IMG/VR virus record: IMGVR_UViG_3300029337_000252
Location: 1 to 19,960 of that record
Direction: 5' to 3' (one strand)
DNA from: a virus
Lineage: Duplodnaviria > Heunggongvirae > Uroviricota > Caudoviricetes
Length of the DNA: 19,960 nt
How positions within the stretch are numbered: the first letter of the stretch is position 1; each line of letters opens with the position of its first letter. Position numbers and translations under genes: made by a program. The notes under the pieces are model-generated. The model did no database searches and was not told where the DNA came from. It saw only the letters and a program-made list of their open reading frames with translations. Shown here in pieces: positions 1-17,381 of the stretch.

Positions 1-981
1 ATGGACGCAATAATATCGCCCGATTATTACTATGTTCTTACCGTTGCTGGTCAGTCTAATGCCATGGCGTATGGCGAAGGACTGCCATTACCGGACAGTG
101 AAGATGCGCCTCATCCCAGAATTAAACAATTAGCGAGATTTGCGCATACGCATCCCGGAGGCCCGTCATGTCACTTTAACGACATTATTCCACTGACTCA
201 CTGCCCACACGATGTTCAGGATATGCAGGGTTATCACCATCCTCTGGCAACGAATCATCAAACACAGTACGGCACCGTTGGCCAGGCACTGCATATTGCA
301 CGGAAATTACTACCCTTTATTCCTGATAATGCAGGGGTTCTCATCGTTCCATGTTGCCGTGGCGGATCGGCTTTTACAGCGGGCAGCGAAGGGACATATT
401 CAGAACGGCACGGAGCCAGCCATGATGCTTGTCGTTGGGGAACGGATACTCCGCTATACCAGGATTTAGTCAGCAGAACGCGAGCCGCACTGGTAAAAAA
501 CCCGCAGAACAAATTCCTCGGCGTATGCTGGATGCAAGGCGAATTTGACTTAATGACCAGTGACTACGCGTCACATCCTCAACACTTTAATCATATGGTT
601 GAAGCCTTTCGTAGGGATCTAAAACAATACCATTCTCAGCTTAATAATATTACTGACGCACCATGGTTTTGCGGCGATACCACCTGGTACTGGAAAGAAA
701 ATTTCCCTCATGCGTATGAAGTTATTTATGGCAATTATCAAAATAATGTTTTAGCCAATATTATTTTCGTCGACTTCCAGCAACAAGGTGAAAGAGGACT
801 GACGAACGCGCCTGATGAAGATCCGGACGATTTAAGCACGGGATATTACGGTTCAGCGTACCGGTCACCGGAGAACTGGACGACGGCACTGCGAAGCAGT
901 CATTTCAGCGCGGCAGCCCGTCGGGGGATTATTTCTGACAGGTTTGTAGAAGCAATTTTGCAGTTTTGGCGCGAAAGGTGA
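1..981 (+). CDS. nanS: Sialate O-acetylesterase (NanS/YjhS-like SGNH hydrolase), 326 aa
   Basis: Complete ORF starting at window nt 1. N-terminal GQSNAMAYG block fits the SGNH esterase catalytic motif of NanS-type enzymes; length matches E. coli NanS as I recall it. Confidence 0.8.
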   Translation: MDAIISPDYYYVLTVAGQSNAMAYGEGLPLPDSEDAPHPRIKQLARFAHTHPGGPSCHFNDIIPLTHCPHDVQDMQGYHHPLATNHQTQYGTVGQALHIARKLLPFIPDNAGVLIVPCCRGGSAFTAGSEGTYSERHGASHDACRWGTDTPLYQDLVSRTRAALVKNPQNKFLGVCWMQGEFDLMTSDYASHPQHFNHMVEAFRRDLKQYHSQLNNITDAPWFCGDTTWYWKENFPHAYEVIYGNYQNNVLANIIFVDFQQQGERGLTNAPDEDPDDLSTGYYGSAYRSPENWTTALRSSHFSAAARRGIISDRFVEAILQFWRER

Positions 982-988
982 GCGTTCA

Positions 989-1639
989 TTAATTTGATTT
1001 ATTCGCATCCATCAGCGCTTTTAACTCCTCCGGCGTAAACGGTGGTTTGCGCCGGTGCAGCATCGCATGGCAATTAGGGCACACAGGAAGTAAATCATTA
1101 ACTGGATCCAGCTGGTAATCCTCTTTAATGGCTGAAAGCGGCACCAGGTGATGCATATGGATAAAACCCTCAGCGATATCGCCATAGATCTTCACCAGAT
1201 CAACGCCGCATACGTTGCACTGGCATCCGTGATGTTCGACTGCTTTCTCGCGAGCTTTTTTATCGCGTTCATAGCGGTTTACCGTCACCTTTATCGCCGC
1301 ACCTTCAACGTAGGTCCCCTGCGACGGCAACTCATCCGGGAACAGAACATCGGCTATGGGAGCCGCAGCGGCTTTATCCTGATGAATATGAAATCCCTGA
1401 TCTATAAGTAGCTTGACGCATTTAGATTTTATTCCGCCGGTGAAATCCGCAGGGGTAAATTGCGTCCCCGTCATCAATGTCGCTGCGATACCAGCAATCG
1501 CCTTCGAGGGGTAACGTCGGCCATGATATTCAATCTCATACAACCGTGCAGGCTGGAACTGATGAGTTTCTCCCGCATCCCATAAATGAATAGCTTTGAT
1601 GATATACCGCCGAGGAAGATGATCGGGGAGTTTATTCAT
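989..1639 (-). CDS. HNH endonuclease-family protein with an N-terminal domain of unknown function, 216 aa
   Basis: C-terminal HNH signature (CQCNVCG ... HMHHLVPLS ... CPNCH). Convergent with nanS, 7-bp gap. N-terminal about 120 aa not recognised. Confidence 0.75.
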   Translation of the reverse strand: MNKLPDHLPRRYIIKAIHLWDAGETHQFQPARLYEIEYHGRRYPSKAIAGIAATLMTGTQFTPADFTGGIKSKCVKLLIDQGFHIHQDKAAAAPIADVLFPDELPSQGTYVEGAAIKVTVNRYERDKKAREKAVEHHGCQCNVCGVDLVKIYGDIAEGFIHMHHLVPLSAIKEDYQLDPVNDLLPVCPNCHAMLHRRKPPFTPEELKALMDANKSN

Positions 1640-6255: not shown

Positions 6256-6535
6256 GCGTCCTGTCTCCCCGGTCTTTCTGCTGGGCGAGAAAATCGCGGC
6301 ACAGGCCTTTGGCTTTCAGCTCATTCAGCACAAAATCAATATCTTCATTCAGGTAGCTGAAAATATGCGGAATGTAGAGCTGATGCAGGCCGGAGAGTTC
6401 ACGGTGAATCAAATCACCCCCAACAAACCGGGATACGGCGCTGGCGCGGTTGAGCTTATGGTAAGCCTCAATGCTGAGGTGTTCACGGGCGTCATGACGC
6501 GCTGAGACGGTCTGAGGGGCTTTTTTATTACGCAC
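6248..6535 (-). CDS. Epsilon-like protein, 95 aa, proposed GTG start
   Basis: The ORF track gives 190 aa (to 6820), but the first 95 residues are low-complexity. A GTG with a GGAGG Shine-Dalgarno 5 nt upstream gives a 95-aa product, the size I recall for P4 epsilon. Confidence 0.5.
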
Positions 6536-6725
6536 GGGACACCTCCACCACCGGCAGACGGGCAGCAAGGGAGAGCACATAGTCACGGACAAGGGAACGG
6601 CGGGCACTGCGTTCATCACCGGCGACGGTGCGAAGCATACAGATACGGGGATGACGGTCTGTGCGACGGACAGCCGCAAACACAAAGACAAATTCAGGGT
6701 GTGAGGGGGTAAGGGTTGTAGCCAT
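6528..6725 (-). CDS. Hypothetical small protein, 65 aa
   Basis: ATG preceded by AGGAGG (8-nt spacer); overlaps the proposed epsilon start. Replaces the 214-aa track ORF 6528-7172. Confidence 0.5.
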
Positions 6726-6728
6726 GAT

Positions 6729-6847
6729 GGCAGCCTCCTGTGAATAGCAAATAACGCTATCGCCGGAGTTTCCACGCTCGATGGCGATAGCCCAGACGGG
6801 GGTGGAAATACCGGCTTCACAGGATACCGGCCAGCCCGGAGGCTGCC
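6729..6847 (-). promoter_or_regulatory. Structured leader upstream of orf66: hairpin plus U-tract and an anti-SD segment (candidate immunity/attenuation region, cI-like)
   Basis: 9-bp stem hairpin (6766-6774 / 6793-6801) followed on the minus strand by a U-rich run; 10-nt GGCAGCCUCC (6838-6847) exactly complementary to the orf66 SD region GGAGGCUGCC (6729-6738). Confidence 0.35.
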
Positions 6848-7123
6848 CCGCCTGAGCTACCATTGACTCTGCGGCATAATGAGCGGACGCGGGCAGGATG
6901 CACGGAATGCCATCTGCACGACTGACCACACACCACACCATAATCTGGCGCTCTGTGGCGTTGATTGCGACACAAAAAAAGACGCATGGCGCGTCATATG
7001 TCGCCTGTGAATTGCTCGGGTTTCCACGCCCGGCTGCCGATTTTGCGGCAGCGGAAAAACTATATCCGCAAATGCCGGAAAAAGGCAAGCCAGAAAAAGG
7101 GACTTTTTGCAGAGCGGGCATCA

Positions 7124-7390
7124 TCATGCGTCGTACCCCCGTTTGCGTCCGGCAATGCGCCCGGCCATCCATGCGGTGACTTCAGAGTGCAGCCAGGCCA
7201 CATTTTTACCGCCAAGACTCACCTGCGGCGGAAATTCCCCCTTACGGATGAGTTCATAGATGGTCGAGCGTGACAGGCCGCACAGGTGCATCACTTCCGG
7301 AAGACGTAAAAAACGCTCCTGTGTGATGTCCGGCAGCGGCATCAGTGGCGTCACAGGGGCGGGAGACGGGGAAGAAAAAACAGCTTGCAT
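7124..7390 (-). CDS. vis: Vis/AlpA-family DNA-binding regulator/excisionase, 88 aa
   Basis: AlpA-like helix-turn-helix core ([27 protein letters not shown]); size matches P4 orf88 (vis) as I recall it. Confidence 0.7.
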
Positions 7391-10238: not shown

Positions 10239-11165
10239 ATGCACGCTTTAGCACCGTATCTTTTCCGCTGCTACAATCCGAACGCAGCCAAAGAACAACG
10301 TTATTCAGCACTGAGTAACATCAGAGAACATGATTTACTTGATATACTCGATGAATTTATTAAGCAGTATAATGAAGAATATATCCTTTCTGAAGAAACC
10401 AAACAAGTTTTTCGTTTTAATGAGATTACACGCGATAACAACAATCGAGAAATATATGGATGGTTCGAGTCTGGATATTACGGAACAAAGACCGACATAA
10501 TAAACATTGAAACTGGCGATGTAGACTTCGAAAAGACAAAAAACAATGCTGAAATAATTAGATATTACATACATTTTTATATTCCTAGAGATGTAAATGA
10601 AGGCATGGCGTTTTTACATACCTATAGAGGTGATGGTATAAAAACTCTTTTTATGAGATTGTTTTCAGATTATTTCAAGAGGGTTACCAACTTAGTGATT
10701 CAAATGAACCCTCTGGCGTATGATAAAGCGATTGAAAAATGGATGAATGCCATTACCAAAGAAATCAAGGTAACTAAATTCCATGGCATTACAGATGTAG
10801 CTGAACAAGCCAAAAAGCTAGGCCATAACGAGCAAGAATTAATTATCAAACCGCCTCGAAATGCAGGACTTGGAAGACTTCGAGACTATTTCTCCAGAGG
10901 CTCGGAGCAATATCAACTCGTTGAAGTCCTTAAAGAATATGGAGAAACAGTAAAAACAGTTGTTGAATTAGATAATGGCAGAAAAAGAACTTTTCATATT
11001 GGAACAACAGCAAGGGGAGCTGTATGTGAAATTTTATTTGATGAAGAACAAGTTGTTTTTTATGATGGCATGCCGGAAATAGCATCACTAAATAATTTTG
11101 TTGATGTTATTATCATGGAATATATACAGTTGTTATATCGTGGTGTTACTATAAGGAGAGCGTAA
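10239..11165 (+). CDS. Hypothetical soluble protein, 308 aa (cargo gene A, candidate sensor of a defence module)
   Basis: AAGGAGA SD 7 nt upstream; about 30% GC by eye; no Walker A, HNH, TOPRIM, TIR or other motif I can recognise. Confidence 0.8.
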   Translation: MHALAPYLFRCYNPNAAKEQRYSALSNIREHDLLDILDEFIKQYNEEYILSEETKQVFRFNEITRDNNNREIYGWFESGYYGTKTDIINIETGDVDFEKTKNNAEIIRYYIHFYIPRDVNEGMAFLHTYRGDGIKTLFMRLFSDYFKRVTNLVIQMNPLAYDKAIEKWMNAITKEIKVTKFHGITDVAEQAKKLGHNEQELIIKPPRNAGLGRLRDYFSRGSEQYQLVEVLKEYGETVKTVVELDNGRKRTFHIGTTARGAVCEILFDEEQVVFYDGMPEIASLNNFVDVIIMEYIQLLYRGVTIRRA

Positions 11166-11749
11166 TGAGTTCAAAGATAAATATATGCGAAGTTCTTATA
11201 GGCCACTTCAGAACTTTAAAAAATGCTGACACTAATAAGATCAGTTTATGGGATATATTTACATTCATAATACTACCATTTATTATTGCTGCCGCATTCT
11301 CACTCCTTGGAAGTGGTATAACAAAAGATTTAATATCATTATTAGTTAATTTCAGTGCAATACTAACAGCATTACTGCTTAGCGTTCTTGTTTTAGTATA
11401 TGATCAAGAATCAAAAATAAGACAAAGAAAAGATATTGATACATTCTATGAATCAAAGAAAGCATTACTCACTGAACTTTATTATAACATTTGTTATTCA
11501 ATTTTATGTGGAGTTTTGTTAGTCGTGTTGTGTTTTATAGTATCACTGTTTCCTGTCAATCAATCAGGATTCTTTTACGGCAAAACACATGAATATTATG
11601 TCAGCATAATAAACACAACTCTAAAATTAAATGTGTTATACTATTTTTTATGCCCACTCATAATATATGTTTGCGTACATTTAATTTTGAATATCATTAT
11701 GATTGTTAAAAGAATGCACGCACTCTTAACTCTTGATGTGAATGATTAG
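11165..11749 (+). CDS. Hypothetical 4-helix membrane protein, 194 aa (cargo gene B, candidate membrane effector)
   Basis: TAATG stop/start overlap with gene A. Four hydrophobic segments (about aa 27-51, 55-79, 104-129, 155-181); about 30% GC. Confidence 0.8.
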   Translation: MSSKINICEVLIGHFRTLKNADTNKISLWDIFTFIILPFIIAAAFSLLGSGITKDLISLLVNFSAILTALLLSVLVLVYDQESKIRQRKDIDTFYESKKALLTELYYNICYSILCGVLLVVLCFIVSLFPVNQSGFFYGKTHEYYVSIINTTLKLNVLYYFLCPLIIYVCVHLILNIIMIVKRMHALLTLDVND

Positions 11750-11803: not shown

Positions 11804-12191
11804 CTATTTAAGTTGTCTAGCAAAATCATATGGTGTAATACTTTCTTTCTTATTTCTATCTAAATAATCTGCCCACCACTGTATCATTAAACGCCTTTCG
11901 TCTAAATGCTCAGATGTATGAATATAAGCAGCACGTACATTATTACGTTCTGAGTGACTTAGCTGACGTTCAATCGCATCATCACTCCATAAGCCTGATT
12001 CCCCTAATGCTCCACGCGCCATCGTTCTAAACCCGTGCCCGCAAACTTCGGTTTTCGTGTCATAGCCCATCGCACGCAATGCGCTATTTACTGTATTTTC
12101 ACTCATAACCTTAGTTGCGTCATGATCCCCCGGAAAAAGCAGTTCTTTATCACCACTAATCTGCTTTAACTGGTTTAGCTGCGTATTTTCA
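11804..12191 (-). pseudogene. int: P4-type tyrosine integrase, 3' fragment (C-terminal about 125 aa), N-terminal part removed at the IS junction
   Basis: Carries the C-terminal catalytic box (HGFRTMARGALGE ... RQLSHSERNNVRAAYIH). The reading frame runs into the IS left end at about 12192, and the first codons of the track ORF are IS-derived. Confidence 0.85.
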
Positions 12192-12372
12192 TGAAAGGAG
12201 ATCACTCAATAACTTCCATCGAGATCGGGTAATAACATTTGAACAGATCGCTGAATAACATCGATGGAGATCACTTTTGACTCATTTTGTTATTCAGTGA
12301 TCTCCATCAATGTTATTGGAACTTCACAGGTGTGTTGATCTGTATCTTTTGCCATTCCGGTAAAGGATACCT

Positions 12373-13914
12373 ATGCCAACAGTTCCAATTTCTATGAGAA
12401 AACTTAAAGAAATTCTTAGGCTTAAATACGGTGTTGGACTCAGCCATCGACAAATTGGTCGTAGTCTTGCAATCTCCCCTTCCGTTGTATCCAGATATGC
12501 TAATCGGGCGGCTCAACTTGGCATAAAGCAGTGGCCCTTACCTACAGGATGGGATGATACAAAACTAAAACATGCGTTCCTTCAGACCCAGGTTAAGATG
12601 AAGAAGCACTCTCTGCCTGACTGGGCTACAGTACACCGGGAACTGCGTAATAAATGCGTGACGCTGCAGCTACTCTGGGAAGAATACTGTGAGCGTAATC
12701 CAGGCGGTTTTTACAGCTATAACCATTACTGCCGGATGTACCGTGAATGGCTCAAAACCACTTCACCATCAATGCGTCAGGTACATAAAGCTGGCGAAAA
12801 ACTTTTCGTTGATTACTGTGGACCTACCGTTGGCGTTACCGACCCTGAGACCGGAGAAATAAGAACTGCTCAGGTCATCGTAGCTGTTCTCGGGGCATCA
12901 AGTTACACATGGGCAGAGGCCACCTGGTCTCAGCAGCTTGAAGACTGGGTGATGAGTCATGTTCGCTGCTTCCAGTGGTTGGGTGGCGTTCCTGAACTTG
13001 TTGTTCCGGACAATCTGAAAAGCGCCACATCCAGGGCATGTAAGTATGATCCTGACGTTAACCCTACCTACCAGCAGATGCTTGAGCATTATAATGTCGC
13101 AGTTTTGCCTGCGCGGCCACGTAAACCGAAAGATAAAGCCAAAGCTGAAGTTGGCGTTCAGGTTGTTGAACGCTGGATCATGGCCCGAATCAGGCATGAG
13201 ATCTTCTACAGCCTTGCATCGCTTAATCAGCGCATTCGGGAGTTGCTGGAAAGACTGAATAACAAAATAATGCAGAAGTTGGGTTATTCACGTGCAGAAC
13301 TCTTCATCCAGCTTGATAAACCCGCACTGAAGCCTCTTCCTGAAGCCAGTTACAGTTACACCCTGGTGAAGAAAGTCAGAGTTCATGCCGATTACCACGT
13401 GGAAATCGACAAACATTACTACTCGGTTCCATGTTCGCTGTTAGGCCAGCAACTGGAAGCATGGATCTCCGGAGAACTGGTAAGACTCTTCAATCAGGGG
13501 CAGGAGGTTGCTGTGCACCCGCGCAAGCGTACTTATGGCTACAGTACCCGCAACGAGCACATGCCTGAAGCTCATCGACAGCATGCCACCTGGACGCCAG
13601 AGCGTCTTCTGGAATGGGCGGGGCACATAGGCAGTGAAACTCATAGTTATGTGCTTCATATACTGAACTCTCGTCCACATCCGGAACAAAGCTATCGCTT
13701 CTGCCTTGGACTCCTGAACCTTCATAAAAAATACAGTAAAGCCAGACTTAATGCAGCATGTGCAAGAGCTCTGAAAACAAAGGTATGGCGTCTGTCAGGT
13801 ATTAAATCGATCCTGGAAAAAGGTCTGGATAAACAACCTGTTCAGGATCCAAAACCAGATCTGTTATCCACGATGGAACACGAAAACGTACGCGGCAGTG
13901 AGTATTACCACTGA
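12373..13914 (+). CDS. istA: IS21-family transposase IstA, 513 aa
   Basis: N-terminal helix-turn-helix, large size, followed 12 nt later by an IstB-type ATPase gene. Confidence 0.9.
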   Translation: MPTVPISMRKLKEILRLKYGVGLSHRQIGRSLAISPSVVSRYANRAAQLGIKQWPLPTGWDDTKLKHAFLQTQVKMKKHSLPDWATVHRELRNKCVTLQLLWEEYCERNPGGFYSYNHYCRMYREWLKTTSPSMRQVHKAGEKLFVDYCGPTVGVTDPETGEIRTAQVIVAVLGASSYTWAEATWSQQLEDWVMSHVRCFQWLGGVPELVVPDNLKSATSRACKYDPDVNPTYQQMLEHYNVAVLPARPRKPKDKAKAEVGVQVVERWIMARIRHEIFYSLASLNQRIRELLERLNNKIMQKLGYSRAELFIQLDKPALKPLPEASYSYTLVKKVRVHADYHVEIDKHYYSVPCSLLGQQLEAWISGELVRLFNQGQEVAVHPRKRTYGYSTRNEHMPEAHRQHATWTPERLLEWAGHIGSETHSYVLHILNSRPHPEQSYRFCLGLLNLHKKYSKARLNAACARALKTKVWRLSGIKSILEKGLDKQPVQDPKPDLLSTMEHENVRGSEYYH

Positions 13915-13925
13915 TACGGGATCCA

Positions 13926-14675
13926 ATGATGAATCATCTTTACGAACAACTGACCGCACTTAAACTCACCGGCTTCCGTGATGCGCTTAAAAAGCAACTT
14001 GCTCAGCCGGGCACATACCAGGAGCTGGGCTTCGAAGAACGCCTGTCATTACTGACAGCAGAAGAACTAACCTGCCGTGAAAACAGGAAGGCAGAGCGTC
14101 TGATCAAACATGCACGGTTCAGACTTAATGCTGAGTTATCAAAGCTGGATTATCGTAACAATAGAGGGCTGGACAGGGCCTTCATCCGTTCACTCAGTCA
14201 GGGAAACTGGTTAACCCTGAAACAAAATATTTTACTGACCGGGGCCACCGGCAGCGGTAAAACGTTCCTGGCATGTGCACTTGGTCATAATGCCTGCCGA
14301 CAGGGATACAAGGTCTACTATTATCGCCTTAAAGCGCTGATGGAACAGTGCTATCAGGGGCATGCTGATGGAAGATACAGCAAACTTTTGACCAGGCTGA
14401 ATAATAGCGATCTGCTGCTTCTGGATGACTGGGGGCTGGAACCTCTCTCATCAGAACAGCGTAGCGACCTGCTGGAAATAGTGGATCTGATGTACCAACG
14501 AGGCTCAATCATCGTAGTGAGCCAGTTGCCGGTGGAAAACTGGTACAAAATGATCGGAGACTCCACACATGCGGATGCCATCCTAGATCGACTGGTTCAT
14601 GGCAGTATCAAGATCGAACTTAAAGGAGAATCAATGCGGAAAATACAATCTCCGTTGACCGAAGGAGATCAGTGA
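13926..14675 (+). CDS. istB: IS21-family helper ATPase IstB, 249 aa
   Basis: Walker A (GATGSGKTFLACALG) and Walker B (LLLLDDWG) of the DnaC/IstB AAA+ family. Confidence 0.9.
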   Translation: MMNHLYEQLTALKLTGFRDALKKQLAQPGTYQELGFEERLSLLTAEELTCRENRKAERLIKHARFRLNAELSKLDYRNNRGLDRAFIRSLSQGNWLTLKQNILLTGATGSGKTFLACALGHNACRQGYKVYYYRLKALMEQCYQGHADGRYSKLLTRLNNSDLLLLDDWGLEPLSSEQRSDLLEIVDLMYQRGSIIVVSQLPVENWYKMIGDSTHADAILDRLVHGSIKIELKGESMRKIQSPLTEGDQ

Positions 14676-14745
14676 AGGTAATTTAAAAACGGTTCTGTGA
14701 AAGTGACACGAACCGATCTCCATCGATGTTACTCACCGATCTCCT

Positions 14746-15183
14746 TCACGGTAATACGCAAAAAGTTAGCTGGATTCTTAGGCCATTAGAAATTCCAACA
14801 TCTTTAGAGGCTTTAAAACTCGTAATAATGGAATCGTCAATTTTAATTCCGTCTCGACAGATGACCGAAATAATTTGCTTCTGGTCACGCCAGCTTTCCA
14901 GAGTGTCGATGAAGTTTTCCACCAGCTTATTATCTCTTGAGATGAGGATACTACCGGATTCACCAACCACAACCACACCACTGATTGAAATAGTTCTGGG
15001 TGAACGCATTACATTATCTGTGACAGCCTGCCCTGATTGCATATTTTGAGTGGTAACCATCATAGGGCTATCAAATTCCATGTTCTCAGTAGCTGATAGT
15101 GACAAGAAATTATCTGGTTGGCCTTGTAGATGGAAGTAAACACCATCTTTGCCACTGTAACGAAGCTGATTAGTGTAAATCAT
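14746..15183 (-). CDS. Phage tail component downstream of the tape measure gene, truncated at its 3' end by the IS (145 aa as read)
   Basis: Start set at the ATG with an AAGGAGA SD (track ORF begins 7 codons earlier at TTG). Its stop codon is supplied by the last 3 nt of the IS right end. Confidence 0.5.
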
Positions 15184-15341
15184 TAAATTCTCCTTTGATT
15201 TCAAAGGCTTAGTGTATTTTAAGTATTTTTAACTAATCCTTTGATATATAAGTGTTTTCTCTGTTAAGCGTGAGCTACGTGAAAAATAATTTTTTAGTGT
15301 GGGTATTAACTTTGCTTTATTCACGTAGCATTCGACTATTA

Positions 15342-17381
15342 TCAATCATCTTCTGGGAATGATGAACTTAATAGCGTAGCTTCTGCGTATTGGTCGTAGA
15401 TATTACCGCTAAAGGTCATAAAGCTGGTTTCATCTGGTTTAATGGCAACTTCACCACCAAGTGAAACTTTCACAGGCTCCTGAATACGTTTACTCAAAGC
15501 GGAGATTTCATCTCTCAGGCTTTGGATATCTGCACTCGTTAATGCTGAATCTTGCTTAATGTTGTTTAATTCTGGATGCTGGAAGTTAGCAAGATTCATG
15601 GCAGCACTATTAAACCACCCTTTAACATCATCCATAGTGAAAGCGGGTTTAAGTCCAGACTCTTTAGCTAGCTCTGGTAATTTAGCTTGTGCTTCCATTC
15701 GTTCAGGCGTAGAAGCTAATCTCTCATAACCTGCATAGATTGCACTACCAGTTAATAGCATATTCCCAAGATTAAACCTTGATGGTTTCCCGTTCTTTTT
15801 ATTTACGTTATCTGCTGTAGTATCAGCGACCTGACCTAATCTTGTGATAGCAGTCATAAGCCCGTAAATACTTCTAGTTACACCAACAACTTTATTTACA
15901 GCAATAACACCAGCCAAGACTTTTAAACTATTAATCAAGCCAGAACCTAAAGCATCAACAACTTTCTTTTGTTCATCGGTTAAACCACGATAAGCTAATG
16001 TCACCTCATCAAAGAACGCTCTCACCCTGTAACTAATATAAGTCAGGTTATCGATACCATGTGACATATCACTCATCAAGCTACCAAGACTTTCACCTAA
16101 TGTTTTACCACTTCCATCTAAACTATTTAAAAGCGTTGTTAAGCTTCGTGTAAAATCTTGCAGACCATTTTCAGAACCTTTGAAAATATCCGTTAATGAG
16201 TTATTCCAGGTATTCTTTAAGTTCCCTAACATTGTCTGCGTAGAGTCCTGAATAGCTTTCCAGCCACCTCTTGAATTAATCTGTGCACCAAGTTCTTTAG
16301 CAAACTTAGGGAGTGCATCAGAGGCTTTAACATCACCATTTTTCATCTTATCGAAAAGCTGTTTTTCAGTCAGACCTAAAGCCTTTGCAAATGCCTGAGT
16401 AGCACCCGGTAAAGCTTCAGATAATTGCCCCTTCAACTCCTCAGACATCACCTGCCCCTTAGAAGCCATCTGCGATACTGCGGTTAATGCTCTTTGAATC
16501 TGCTCATCTGAACGCCCCATTAGACGGGCATATCCAGTTAAGTTTTTAAATAATTCCTCTGAGCCTTCAAGACCCATCGTATTCTTTGCAGATGCACCGA
16601 ATGAGGCAAACTGAGCTTGTGTTTCGGTCGTGTCCATACCCGTGACTTGAGTTAAATCCTGAATGAACTTTTTAACCTGTGTACTTTGGTCACCGAATAC
16701 GAAATCAATACTTCTTTCCGATGATGCACGCTGTAAACCAACTTCCATAATCTTCTGATAACTGGCTAATACAGCTTGCATTGAGATAAATGCACCTGCT
16801 GTTTTAACTGCTGCTGAAGACAGGTTATCAAGACTATTAGCTGCTCTGTCACCATTAATGCTGGTGGATGTATGACCTCTGGCTTTAGCAATTGCTTCTC
16901 GTACACTTGAATTTAGTTTAGCAAGGGCTTCATTAAACTTGGTGTTATCCATCTGACCAGCTTTACTACTTAATGCGTAAAACTGGCTCTTAATGTATTT
17001 CTCGACAATTGGGTTAAGACCTTTCAGTTTGGTCATACTCGCTGAATAAGCTGCTGTGATTGCTCTGCTTCCGCTAATTCGTGGTTGCCTTGATTGTCTA
17101 AGTGGCTTTAAAGTATCCTCAATTTCCGTTTTAATCTTAAACGCTTTAGTGTTTTTAAGACGCTGCTCAATCTTGGAAACAGTTTTATCGACATTTCTTT
17201 CCATGACCTTGAGAGAATCATTTAAAGGCGTAGGATTAACTCTGAATGCTTTATTTAGTCGTTTTTCAATTCTTGATGCGATTTGCATCGTTTGTTTCTC
17301 GGCTTTTTCCAAGCCTTTTAAAACTTTCTGAGAGTTAAAACTTAACTCAATCAGGAAGTCATCAACTTTAAACTGTGCCAT
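15342..17381 (-). CDS. Phage tail tape measure protein, 679 aa
   Basis: Long, helix-rich, low in aromatics; central segment (GQVMSEELKGQLSEALPGATQAFAKALGLTEKQLFDKMKNG) resembles the conserved tape-measure core region. Confidence 0.8.
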   Translation of the reverse strand: MAQFKVDDFLIELSFNSQKVLKGLEKAEKQTMQIASRIEKRLNKAFRVNPTPLNDSLKVMERNVDKTVSKIEQRLKNTKAFKIKTEIEDTLKPLRQSRQPRISGSRAITAAYSASMTKLKGLNPIVEKYIKSQFYALSSKAGQMDNTKFNEALAKLNSSVREAIAKARGHTSTSINGDRAANSLDNLSSAAVKTAGAFISMQAVLASYQKIMEVGLQRASSERSIDFVFGDQSTQVKKFIQDLTQVTGMDTTETQAQFASFGASAKNTMGLEGSEELFKNLTGYARLMGRSDEQIQRALTAVSQMASKGQVMSEELKGQLSEALPGATQAFAKALGLTEKQLFDKMKNGDVKASDALPKFAKELGAQINSRGGWKAIQDSTQTMLGNLKNTWNNSLTDIFKGSENGLQDFTRSLTTLLNSLDGSGKTLGESLGSLMSDMSHGIDNLTYISYRVRAFFDEVTLAYRGLTDEQKKVVDALGSGLINSLKVLAGVIAVNKVVGVTRSIYGLMTAITRLGQVADTTADNVNKKNGKPSRFNLGNMLLTGSAIYAGYERLASTPERMEAQAKLPELAKESGLKPAFTMDDVKGWFNSAAMNLANFQHPELNNIKQDSALTSADIQSLRDEISALSKRIQEPVKVSLGGEVAIKPDETSFMTFSGNIYDQYAEATLLSSSFPEDD

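Follow-up and report, generated by a model that had tools for sequence, protein, structure and literature searches.

The window, the whole 19,960-nt stretch of DNA analyzed here, matches satellite phage P4 from position 2428 to ~12177, with ~98 % identity across the whole element. On the minus strand, the interval between vis and epsilon is 98.3 % identical to P4 and gap-free over 1051 nt (X02534, X51522, NC_001609), such that coordinates in this part convert as P4 = window + 1640. The neighboring genes are vis (88 aa, AlpA family; orf88), epsilon and alpha, in agreement with the first-pass annotation, which had placed a leader between vis and the epsilon/alpha genes; the genes found beyond kil are epsilon (Pfam Derepression family), orf151, DUF5375 and alpha. 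Judged by its sequence, the leader flagged at 6729-6900 is the P4 immunity region itself, beyond mere equivalence, and the immunity system found here is already known from a nearly identical sequence. In P4, the CI RNA causes premature transcription termination by pairing with seqA, upstream of cI, and with seqC, downstream of it (PMC4825925). The P4 seqA RNA corresponds to IsrK and the CI RNA to C4 (PMC3632133), and CI RNA is a substrate of RNase P, which makes its 5' end (PMC5499578). According to the literature, CI RNA arises by processing that involves RNase P and PNPase, and premature termination takes place in lysogens. For comparison, 80 P4-like loci were collected from Enterobacterales genomes using the alpha protein as the query (alpha identity 58-99 %). 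A CI homolog is present in 75 of these loci, isrK followed by C4 was found in 16/16 diverse loci scanned with Rfam, and the pair counts given below are based on an alignment (A1) of 71 distinct leaders.

The first part of the leader, as transcribed from the minus strand, holds a promoter and a small RNA gene:

7059 to 7088, minus strand: PLE-type sigma-70 promoter from a promoter scan (-35 TTGCCT, 18-nt spacer, -10 TATAGT)
7065 to 7013, minus strand: c4-a1b1 motif (Rfam RF03163, 50.2 bits, gathering threshold 46.7)
6975 to 7052, minus strand: isrK-family RNA, the seqA RNA of the P4 literature (Rfam RF01394, 74.9 bits, gathering threshold 50)
7021 to 7027, minus strand: a1 target site GUGGAAA, which lies in the second hairpin's loop and pairs with a' of the CI RNA
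7004 to 7011, minus strand: b1 target site (seqA core) UUCACAGG, pairing with b' of the CI RNA
6974 to 6995, minus strand: canonical intrinsic terminator at the end of the isrK-like RNA (GACGCG-CCA-UGCGUC followed by U7)

The -10 element of PLE falls on what X02534 annotates as the 'consensus -10', and transcription should start near 7052. The distance from the -10 to a1 is 32 nt, matching that of P1c4 in phage P1. The isrK-family RNA comprises two hairpins, both target sites (a1 and b1) and the intrinsic terminator, and the hairpins of this region are 100 % paired in the 71 leaders. Upstream hairpin 6995-6981 with its T7 run was the sole call of the terminator scan, and 7-8 U follow the stem in 71/71 leaders. 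This terminator is probably the one named t1 in P4, a name reportedly used by Briani and colleagues in 2000. Naming of the a and b sites follows Weinberg and agrees with the boundaries of the Rfam hits; the location of a1 agrees with the published description of the a1b1 motif, which contains a1, directly 5' of b1 (Weinberg et al. 2010, PMC2864571 supplement).

Downstream of the terminator lies the gene for the antisense RNA, which carries two recognition sites:

6780 to 6867, minus strand: CI RNA gene, C4 antisense RNA family (Rfam RF01695, 76.6 bits, gathering threshold 45)
6816 to 6824, minus strand: b' (seqB core) UCCUGUGAA, carried by the 12-nt loop of stem-loop 2 in CI and recognizing b1 and b2
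6802 to 6808, minus strand: a' UUUCCAC, unpaired in the junction that links stem-loop 2 to the closing stem, recognizing a1 and a2

By homology to the annotated 77-nt c4 RNA of P1, the mature CI RNA would extend over ~6861-6783, a length of 79 nt, for which the minimum free energy (MFE) fold is a cloverleaf of -49.5 kcal/mol consisting of a 17-bp closing stem and stem-loops 1 and 2. In the 71 leaders the closing stem is 99.9 % paired, with compensatory changes at 3 of its 17 pairs; stem-loop 1 is 100 % paired with 4/5 pairs compensatory, and stem-loop 2 is invariant (100 % paired, 0/5 compensatory). Both recognition sites are accessible in the folded RNA, the cost of opening being 1.8 kcal/mol for b' and 0.0 kcal/mol for a'. 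Going by secondary sources, b' is presumably the published 'seqB'. A scheme in which a' and b' pair with a1b1 and a2b2 has been described (PMC2864571 supplement).

The second pair of target sites is located 3' of the CI RNA:

6769 to 6775, minus strand: a2 target site GUGGAAA, which the hairpin 6791-6756 carries in its loop
6736 to 6744, minus strand: b2 target site (seqC core) UUCACAGGA, overlapping the AGGA of the Shine-Dalgarno (SD) sequence AGGAGG at 6739-6734

The AGGAGG that the first-pass annotation had assigned to a 65-aa ORF is indeed at this position, with the ATG at 6725 and the end of the ORF at 6528. Within the CI RNA, UCCUGUGAA is complementary both to UUCACAGG upstream (7011-7004) and to UUCACAGGA downstream (6744-6736). 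Across the 71 leaders all four pairings are maintained, counting trans and cis pairing alike: b':b2 is 97.1 % paired with 6/9 positions compensatory, a':a2 99.6 % with 6/7, b1:b' 99.3 % with 6/8, and a1:a' 99.6 % with 6/7, while control alignments in which one partner was slid by 1-3 columns were merely 33-50 % paired. Each CI RNA also fits the targets of its own locus better than those of other loci, the cognate and non-cognate scores being 8.75 and 6.40 for b':b2 and 6.94 and 4.71 for a':a2. The co-evolving pairings are thus those between the large loop of CI and the 9 nt overlapping the SD, and between the CI junction and the site in the hairpin loop. The a and b specificity modules occur in 37 combinations among the 71 P4-like leaders and reassort freely, which suggests that P4-like satellites may use a two-part immunity code. 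These results uphold the earlier suggestion of a P4 immunity-like attenuation region: within sequence 98.3 % identical to P4 there are a CI gene, an upstream seqA/isrK RNA and, where the first ORF has its SD, a target site. The alignment to the P4 cI/seq region that had been proposed as a check is the gap-free one described above, in which both Rfam families, C4 and isrK, are found.

A different complementarity had drawn attention to this leader, namely an exact 10-nt match between 6838-6847 and 6729-6738, for which sequestration of the SD or mimicry of the seqA/seqB interaction had been put forward:

6838 to 6847, minus strand: 10-mer GGCAGCCUCC, which runs from the final 2 nt of the closing stem of CI through the 5' arm of stem-loop 1 into the loop (3 nt)
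6729 to 6738, minus strand: SD-region 10-mer GGAGGCUGCC, kept as GGAGGYUGCC whatever the sequence of CI stem-loop 1

The match itself is present at exactly these coordinates, GGCAGCCTCC (6847-6838, minus strand) being the exact reverse complement of GGAGGCTGCC (6738-6729). When the 172-nt span was shuffled 500 times with dinucleotides preserved, an exact 10-nt inverted repeat arose in 6 of the shuffles, against 36/500 for the 401-nt leader, so that the repeat is unusual by chance but not overwhelmingly so. A functional role for GGCAGCCUCC:GGAGGCUGCC pairing could take the form of SD hiding in cis, or of an extension of the b':b2 duplex into stem-loop 1 that would cover the whole SD; the pairing is exact, with a duplex energy of -21.3 kcal/mol, and it adjoins b2, with which it has 3 nt in common, making extension geometrically conceivable. 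Family-wide, 89.3 % of the cells of the 10-mer pair are paired when G-U is counted, yet 4/10 positions depart from pairing by unpaired cells alone, and no consistent compensatory change in the 10-mer pair was found in the 71 leaders. Where stem-loop 1 varies (as in L082, L077, L006, and L045) the SD region stays GGAGGYUGCC, leaving 10-22 unpaired sequences per column, and the CI bases concerned instead change in perfect step with their partners in the opposite arm of stem-loop 1. Cognate and non-cognate scores for the 10-mer are equal (8.94 and 8.90 of 10 positions). Within the leader, whose folding had also been proposed earlier, the 79-nt CI RNA has the cloverleaf as its MFE structure, with a' and b' exposed and GGCAGCCUCC mostly buried: 7/10 of its CI bases are paired inside the cloverleaf, at an opening cost of +11.8 kcal/mol, which together with 10.3 kcal/mol on the target side cancels the duplex energy. 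A function for this pairing is accordingly improbable, and neither of the roles put forward for it is borne out. The 10-nt match is a by-product of two separately conserved sequences, CI stem-loop 1 and the SD with its spacer.

Two further candidate helices in this region were rejected. One, between the CI 5' strand (6863-6855) and the SD-AUG spacer (6735-6727), appeared in cis in the MFE fold of the precursor; it showed no two-sided changes and paired no better than shuffles. The other, a small hairpin formed by AUAGC (6760-6756) and GCUAU (6748-6744), looked compensatory by eye, but with 72.6 % pairing it did no better than shuffles either.

The a2 site is displayed by a hairpin immediately 3' of CI:

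6756 to 6791, minus strand: conserved hairpin with a 9-bp stem and an 18-nt loop carrying a2
6743 to 6755, minus strand: moderately U-rich tail GUUAUUUGCUAUU (5/8 U in the window)

The stem is formed by GCUAUCGCC (6791-6783) and GGCGAUAGC (6764-6756). A hairpin with a 9-bp stem had been noted earlier at 6766-6801, about 25 nt upstream of the SD; the stem is real and conserved, but these coordinates are 10 nt off and enclose no complete hairpin, and the stem actually ends 16 nt before the SD. In its corrected position the hairpin is 99.0 % paired in the 71 leaders, with 3/9 pairs compensatory, and has a folding energy of -18.8 kcal/mol (z ~ -3.0); the loop measures 18 nt in 63 of the leaders and 16 nt in the other 8. 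One strand serves two structures, as 5' arm of this hairpin and as 3' strand of the CI closing stem, so that the hairpin and the closing stem are mutually exclusive. Constrained folds of the 201-nt precursor gave -76.7 and -77.6 kcal/mol and are therefore nearly isoenergetic. In the P4 clade the 3' arm of the hairpin is fully changed (C-G to U-A, A-U to G-C), whereas the CI 5' strand tolerates wobble; the pairing of the hairpin itself thus appears to be under selection.

The hairpin and its tail could be a transcription terminator that ends the ~300-nt PLE transcript, the CI precursor, perhaps in an immunity-dependent manner. Such a role would suit the stability and conservation of the stem, with its three compensatory pairs, and the U-rich run that had been seen to follow it; the run is moderately U-rich in the window, but at least 5/8 U after the stem occur in just 5/71 leaders, and in this respect the hairpin differs from the upstream terminator with 7-8 U in all 71. 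Of the features of a canonical intrinsic terminator the stem is present, but the 18-nt loop lies far outside the usual 3-8 nt, and the terminator scan made no call at 6791-6756. In addition, formation of the 17-bp CI closing stem, the more stable of the two structures, would make the 5' arm unavailable. An atypical Rho-independent terminator, t4, was reportedly placed downstream of cI by Briani and colleagues in 2000, and the hairpin 6791-6756 may, on our assumption, be this t4. For several c4 loci, Weinberg et al. 2010 (PMC2864571) remarked that a terminator hairpin is predicted whose 5' half overlaps the 3' half of P1 (the closing stem). On balance, termination at this site is possible but doubtful, and the hairpin is better understood as a structure that displays a2 and can form in place of the outer part of the CI closing stem than as a canonical terminator. 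We would venture, as a speculative and rather unlikely extension of this reading, that the hairpin is a mechanistically undescribed co-transcriptional switch between the CI cloverleaf and the a2-displaying form. Were this true, each transcript would yield either a mature repressor RNA or a target (or a substrate for pausing or termination) for CI made earlier, and the switch would couple repressor production to repression.

The protein-coding features of the leader overlap these RNA elements:

6528 to 6725, minus strand: kil, an Icd-like 65-aa ORF (NCBIfam NF033153 phage_ICD_like, 76.9 bits, cutoff 25)
6528 to 7127, minus strand: eta frame of 197-199 aa, ending as kil does and reading through both RNA genes
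6569 to 6725, minus strand: timm, corresponding to a fragment (X51522 8365-8209) published as a Rho-dependent terminator and beginning with the ATG of kil

Three consecutive in-frame ATGs, ATGATGATG at 7127-7119, give eta lengths of 199, 198 or 197 aa. Forti and colleagues are reported to have described in 1999 a kil of 65 aa nested in an eta of 197-199 aa, and we presume that the 65-aa ORF is their kil and the 197-199-aa frame their eta. kil is the first translated gene after PLE, and an ORF of 63-66 aa lies at a fixed distance from CI in 73/75 loci. RefSeq has a matching 199-aa CDS named 'Icd-like' in a genome 99.7 % identical. Complete E. coli genomes yielded no exact copy, 99.7 % being the highest identity among them. 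The coordinates and Rho dependence of timm have been published (PMC3177188), and the fragment in the window differs from the published one by one substitution. Nowhere else in the leader is C as frequent and G as scarce as in the first 40 nt of kil (6720-6681; C 38 %, G 10 %), whose composition is rut-like.

Given the long frame, the region could be simply protein-coding, as the old 'cI/ash' 137-aa ORF or as Eta, with the complementarities arising from codon choice. An ORF does span the whole region, it matches Pfam Phage_ASH and a PHROG 'transcriptional repressor', and the frame is open through CI in 68/75 loci. Compensation at four separate helices and three cloverleaf stems is, on the other hand, impossible to obtain from coding constraint, the Rfam covariance models score well above gathering, and in the Pectobacterium/Dickeya clade the long frame is lost while the RNA elements are kept. 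The literature likewise identifies the immunity factor as an RNA (PMC4825925, PMC3632133). A purely coding explanation is hence extremely improbable.

Taken together, these features are best interpreted as the immunity leader of a P4 prophage, in which CI RNA pairs through a' and b' with a2 and b2, kil translation is blocked and Rho stops transcription at timm; we put the probability of this reading at roughly 0.9. In such a system the constitutive PLE would start transcription near 7052, and its first product would be the isrK-like seqA RNA carrying a1 and b1 and ending at the strong intrinsic terminator. Transcripts that read through would carry the CI RNA gene, from which CI would be excised as a stable ~79-nt cloverleaf, RNase P probably making the 5' end as published (PMC5499578). 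The excised RNA would expose b' in its 12-nt loop and a' in its single-stranded junction, and in trans a' would pair with a2, in the hairpin loop just 3' of CI, and b' with b2, which includes the first four bases of the kil SD. In agreement with the published model, pairing at a2 and b2 would block translation of kil and leave its C-rich start unprotected, Rho would then stop transcription at timm within kil, and with epsilon and alpha off the prophage would be immune. Pairing at a1 and b1 upstream would provide a second control point. That processing, termination and translational block proceed in this prophage as in P4 is likely from the near-identity of the two. The int match ends at an IS21 element and int is apparently interrupted; because the match stops there the prophage is possibly defective, in which case the region may be a relic although it is intact.

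The leader thus represents the textbook RNA immunity switch of satellite phage P4, homologous to P1 c4 and intact here. RefSeq, Pfam and PHROGs annotate a protein ('Icd-like', 'Ash', 'transcriptional repressor') across the two RNA genes and no ncRNA. The comparative data map the bases that determine immunity specificity in P4-like satellites, and such a map should help to predict whether resident and incoming satellites are cross-immune, and to engineer delivery particles based on P4.

Reference P4 has the promoter, seqA/isrK, CI, the target at the kil SD, kil within eta, and timm in the same order and with the same spacing as the window, which differs from it by 29 substitutions over 1651 nt. 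The a1, a', and a2 sites differ in a coordinated manner, being GUGGAAA/UUUCCAC in the window and GUGAGAA/UUCUCAC in reference P4, whereas the b sites are identical; in terms of immunity specificity, therefore, the 'a' module alone differs, by a coordinated three-site change. The changes appear as swaps of adjacent bases in a1 (7024/23), a' (6806/05), and a2 (6772/71), and both a-module alleles occur in other genomes. Sequencing errors in the 1984 P4 sequence were considered as a source of four such swaps and rejected for three of them, which fall on a1, a' and a2 and keep complementarity, with both alleles found elsewhere; the fourth (7053/7052) may be a reference error.

The immI c4 system of P1 and P7 belongs to the same RF01695 family. 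In c4 and CI alike, a' occupies the 3' junction and b' the large loop, and the P1 record annotates a1 (7 nt), b1 (8 nt), the c4 RNA (77 nt), a2, b2, and icd. Of the features characteristic of P1 immI, the window has a C4 cloverleaf with a' and b', an a1b1 motif, and b2 on the ribosome binding site of an icd-like gene. Dimensions are close in the two systems, P1 and the window having, respectively, 7 and 9 nt between a1 and b1, an RNA of 77 and 79 nt, 3 and 7 nt from the RNA 3' end to a2, and 22 and 25 nt from a2 to b2, and in both an Icd-like gene begins with its ATG 10 nt from the end of b2. A hairpin built from the last c4 bases with a2 at its apex (-17.0 kcal/mol, z ~ -3.2) is the P1 counterpart of the window hairpin. 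The systems differ in that P4 has ~76 more nt between b1 and the antisense RNA, and in their downstream cargo, which is epsilon and the alpha primase-helicase in P4 and the antirepressor ant in P1; an ant gene downstream of the icd-like ORF is absent from the window. The reported outcome also differs, being transcription termination for P4 and, according to the P1 record, translational repression for P1.

An order of IsrK-like, C4-like, and icd-like elements is further common to IsrK/STnc1160/anrP of Gifsy-1 (Salmonella) and to the immB regions of N15, phiKO2 and PY54 (CB RNA, icd, antA), and these Gifsy-1/N15-type systems resemble the window at the DNA level across CI and the beginning of kil. 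In the phiKO2 annotation, the C4-like gene is preceded by a terminator and followed by an icd-like gene. IsrK has been described as a structural homolog of P4 seqA RNA (PMC4825925). Unlike the satellite P4, the elements of this type are lambdoid or linear-plasmid prophages, the genes that they control encode antirepressors or antiterminators, and the IsrK of Gifsy-1 serves as an sRNA and also as an mRNA.

Relative to reference P4, the immunity leader on the minus strand of the window carries three adjacent-base swaps, at 7024/7023, 6806/6805 and 6772/6771, which coincide exactly with a1, a' and a2, respectively, that is, with the a' recognition segment of the antisense CI RNA and its two target sites. 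At all three sites GUGAGAA/UUCUCAC of the reference is replaced by GUGGAAA/UUUCCAC, and the b sites do not differ from those of reference P4. Judged by sequence, this is one specificity module that has changed in a coordinated, compensatory way. Among 71 distinct P4-like leaders (alignment A1), the a' segments (window 6808-6802) comprise seven sequence types and the b' segments (window 6824-6816) 20, and these occur in 37 different a'/b' combinations, indicating that the a and b modules reassort among P4-like satellites. Such reassortment suggests that immunity specificity in these satellites is a two-part code.

Between the upstream terminator and CI, 45 additional bases (6 at 6965-6960 and 39 at 6924-6886) are present in the P4 clade (the window and loci L003, L005, L014, L019, and L042) and absent from most relatives; the eta frame is preserved despite them because their total is divisible by three. 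In a Pectobacterium/Dickeya clade (L060, L061, L062, L066, L067, L068, and L071), the long frame resembling eta is closed at a point 21-30 nt before the ATG of kil, despite which the upstream seqA-type RNA isrK, CI, the hairpin, the a and b sites, and kil are all retained; the RNA elements are therefore independent of the eta frame. In RefSeq, a 199-aa ‘host cell division inhibitor Icd-like protein’ spans both RNA genes (1574-2173 of comparison locus L083; window equivalent 6528-7127, minus strand), and the annotation holds no ncRNA entry over either. The translated RNA gene is likewise modeled as protein by Pfam Phage_ASH (PF10554) and PHROG 6928 (‘transcriptional repressor’), models that are a holdover from the old protein cI/ash annotation.

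Four relatives (L003, L004, L005, and L039) are short contigs carrying the P4 alpha gene at 98-99% identity under MAG labels of Clostridiales, Ferruginibacter, Ruminococcus or ‘bacterium’, most likely through binning contamination from E. coli satellite DNA.

The surroundings of the leader include the following features.

Features of the flanks, hotspot and int end of the window
1-981, plus strand: SASA-family sialate O-acetylesterase-like protein, left flank
989-1639, minus strand: HNH/type IV restriction-like protein, left flank
10239-11165 and 11165-11749, plus strand: ORFs of 308 aa and 194 aa that overlap each other
11804-12205: 133-aa ORF, the only one left at the int end
12179-14760: IS21-family element (istA 12373-13914, istB 13926-14675)
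14746-15204: Dit-like tail gene
15342-17381: tape measure gene

The IS21-family element is 100% identical to copies from E. coli K-12/C-derived phage records, and the P4 int match ends exactly at it. As only the 133-aa ORF is left there, the satellite probably cannot excise. Past the element lie tail genes belonging to another prophage. The psu-cos-int ‘hotspot’, occupied by gop, beta, and cII in P4, instead holds the 308-aa and 194-aa ORFs, which had no match in Pfam or PADLOC and are candidates for the type of anti-phage cargo reported in P4-like satellites. The window contains no tRNA gene, and hence the tRNA attachment site usual for P4-like elements is not seen in it.

The window hairpin at 6791-6756, which excludes the CI closing stem, resembles one in phage P1 (L084, 310-345; -17.0 kcal/mol, z about -3.2), where the 5' arm is formed by the final bases of the c4 RNA and a2 lies within the apex. 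By this parallel, c4 systems may in general possess a hairpin of this kind as an alternative to their closing stem.
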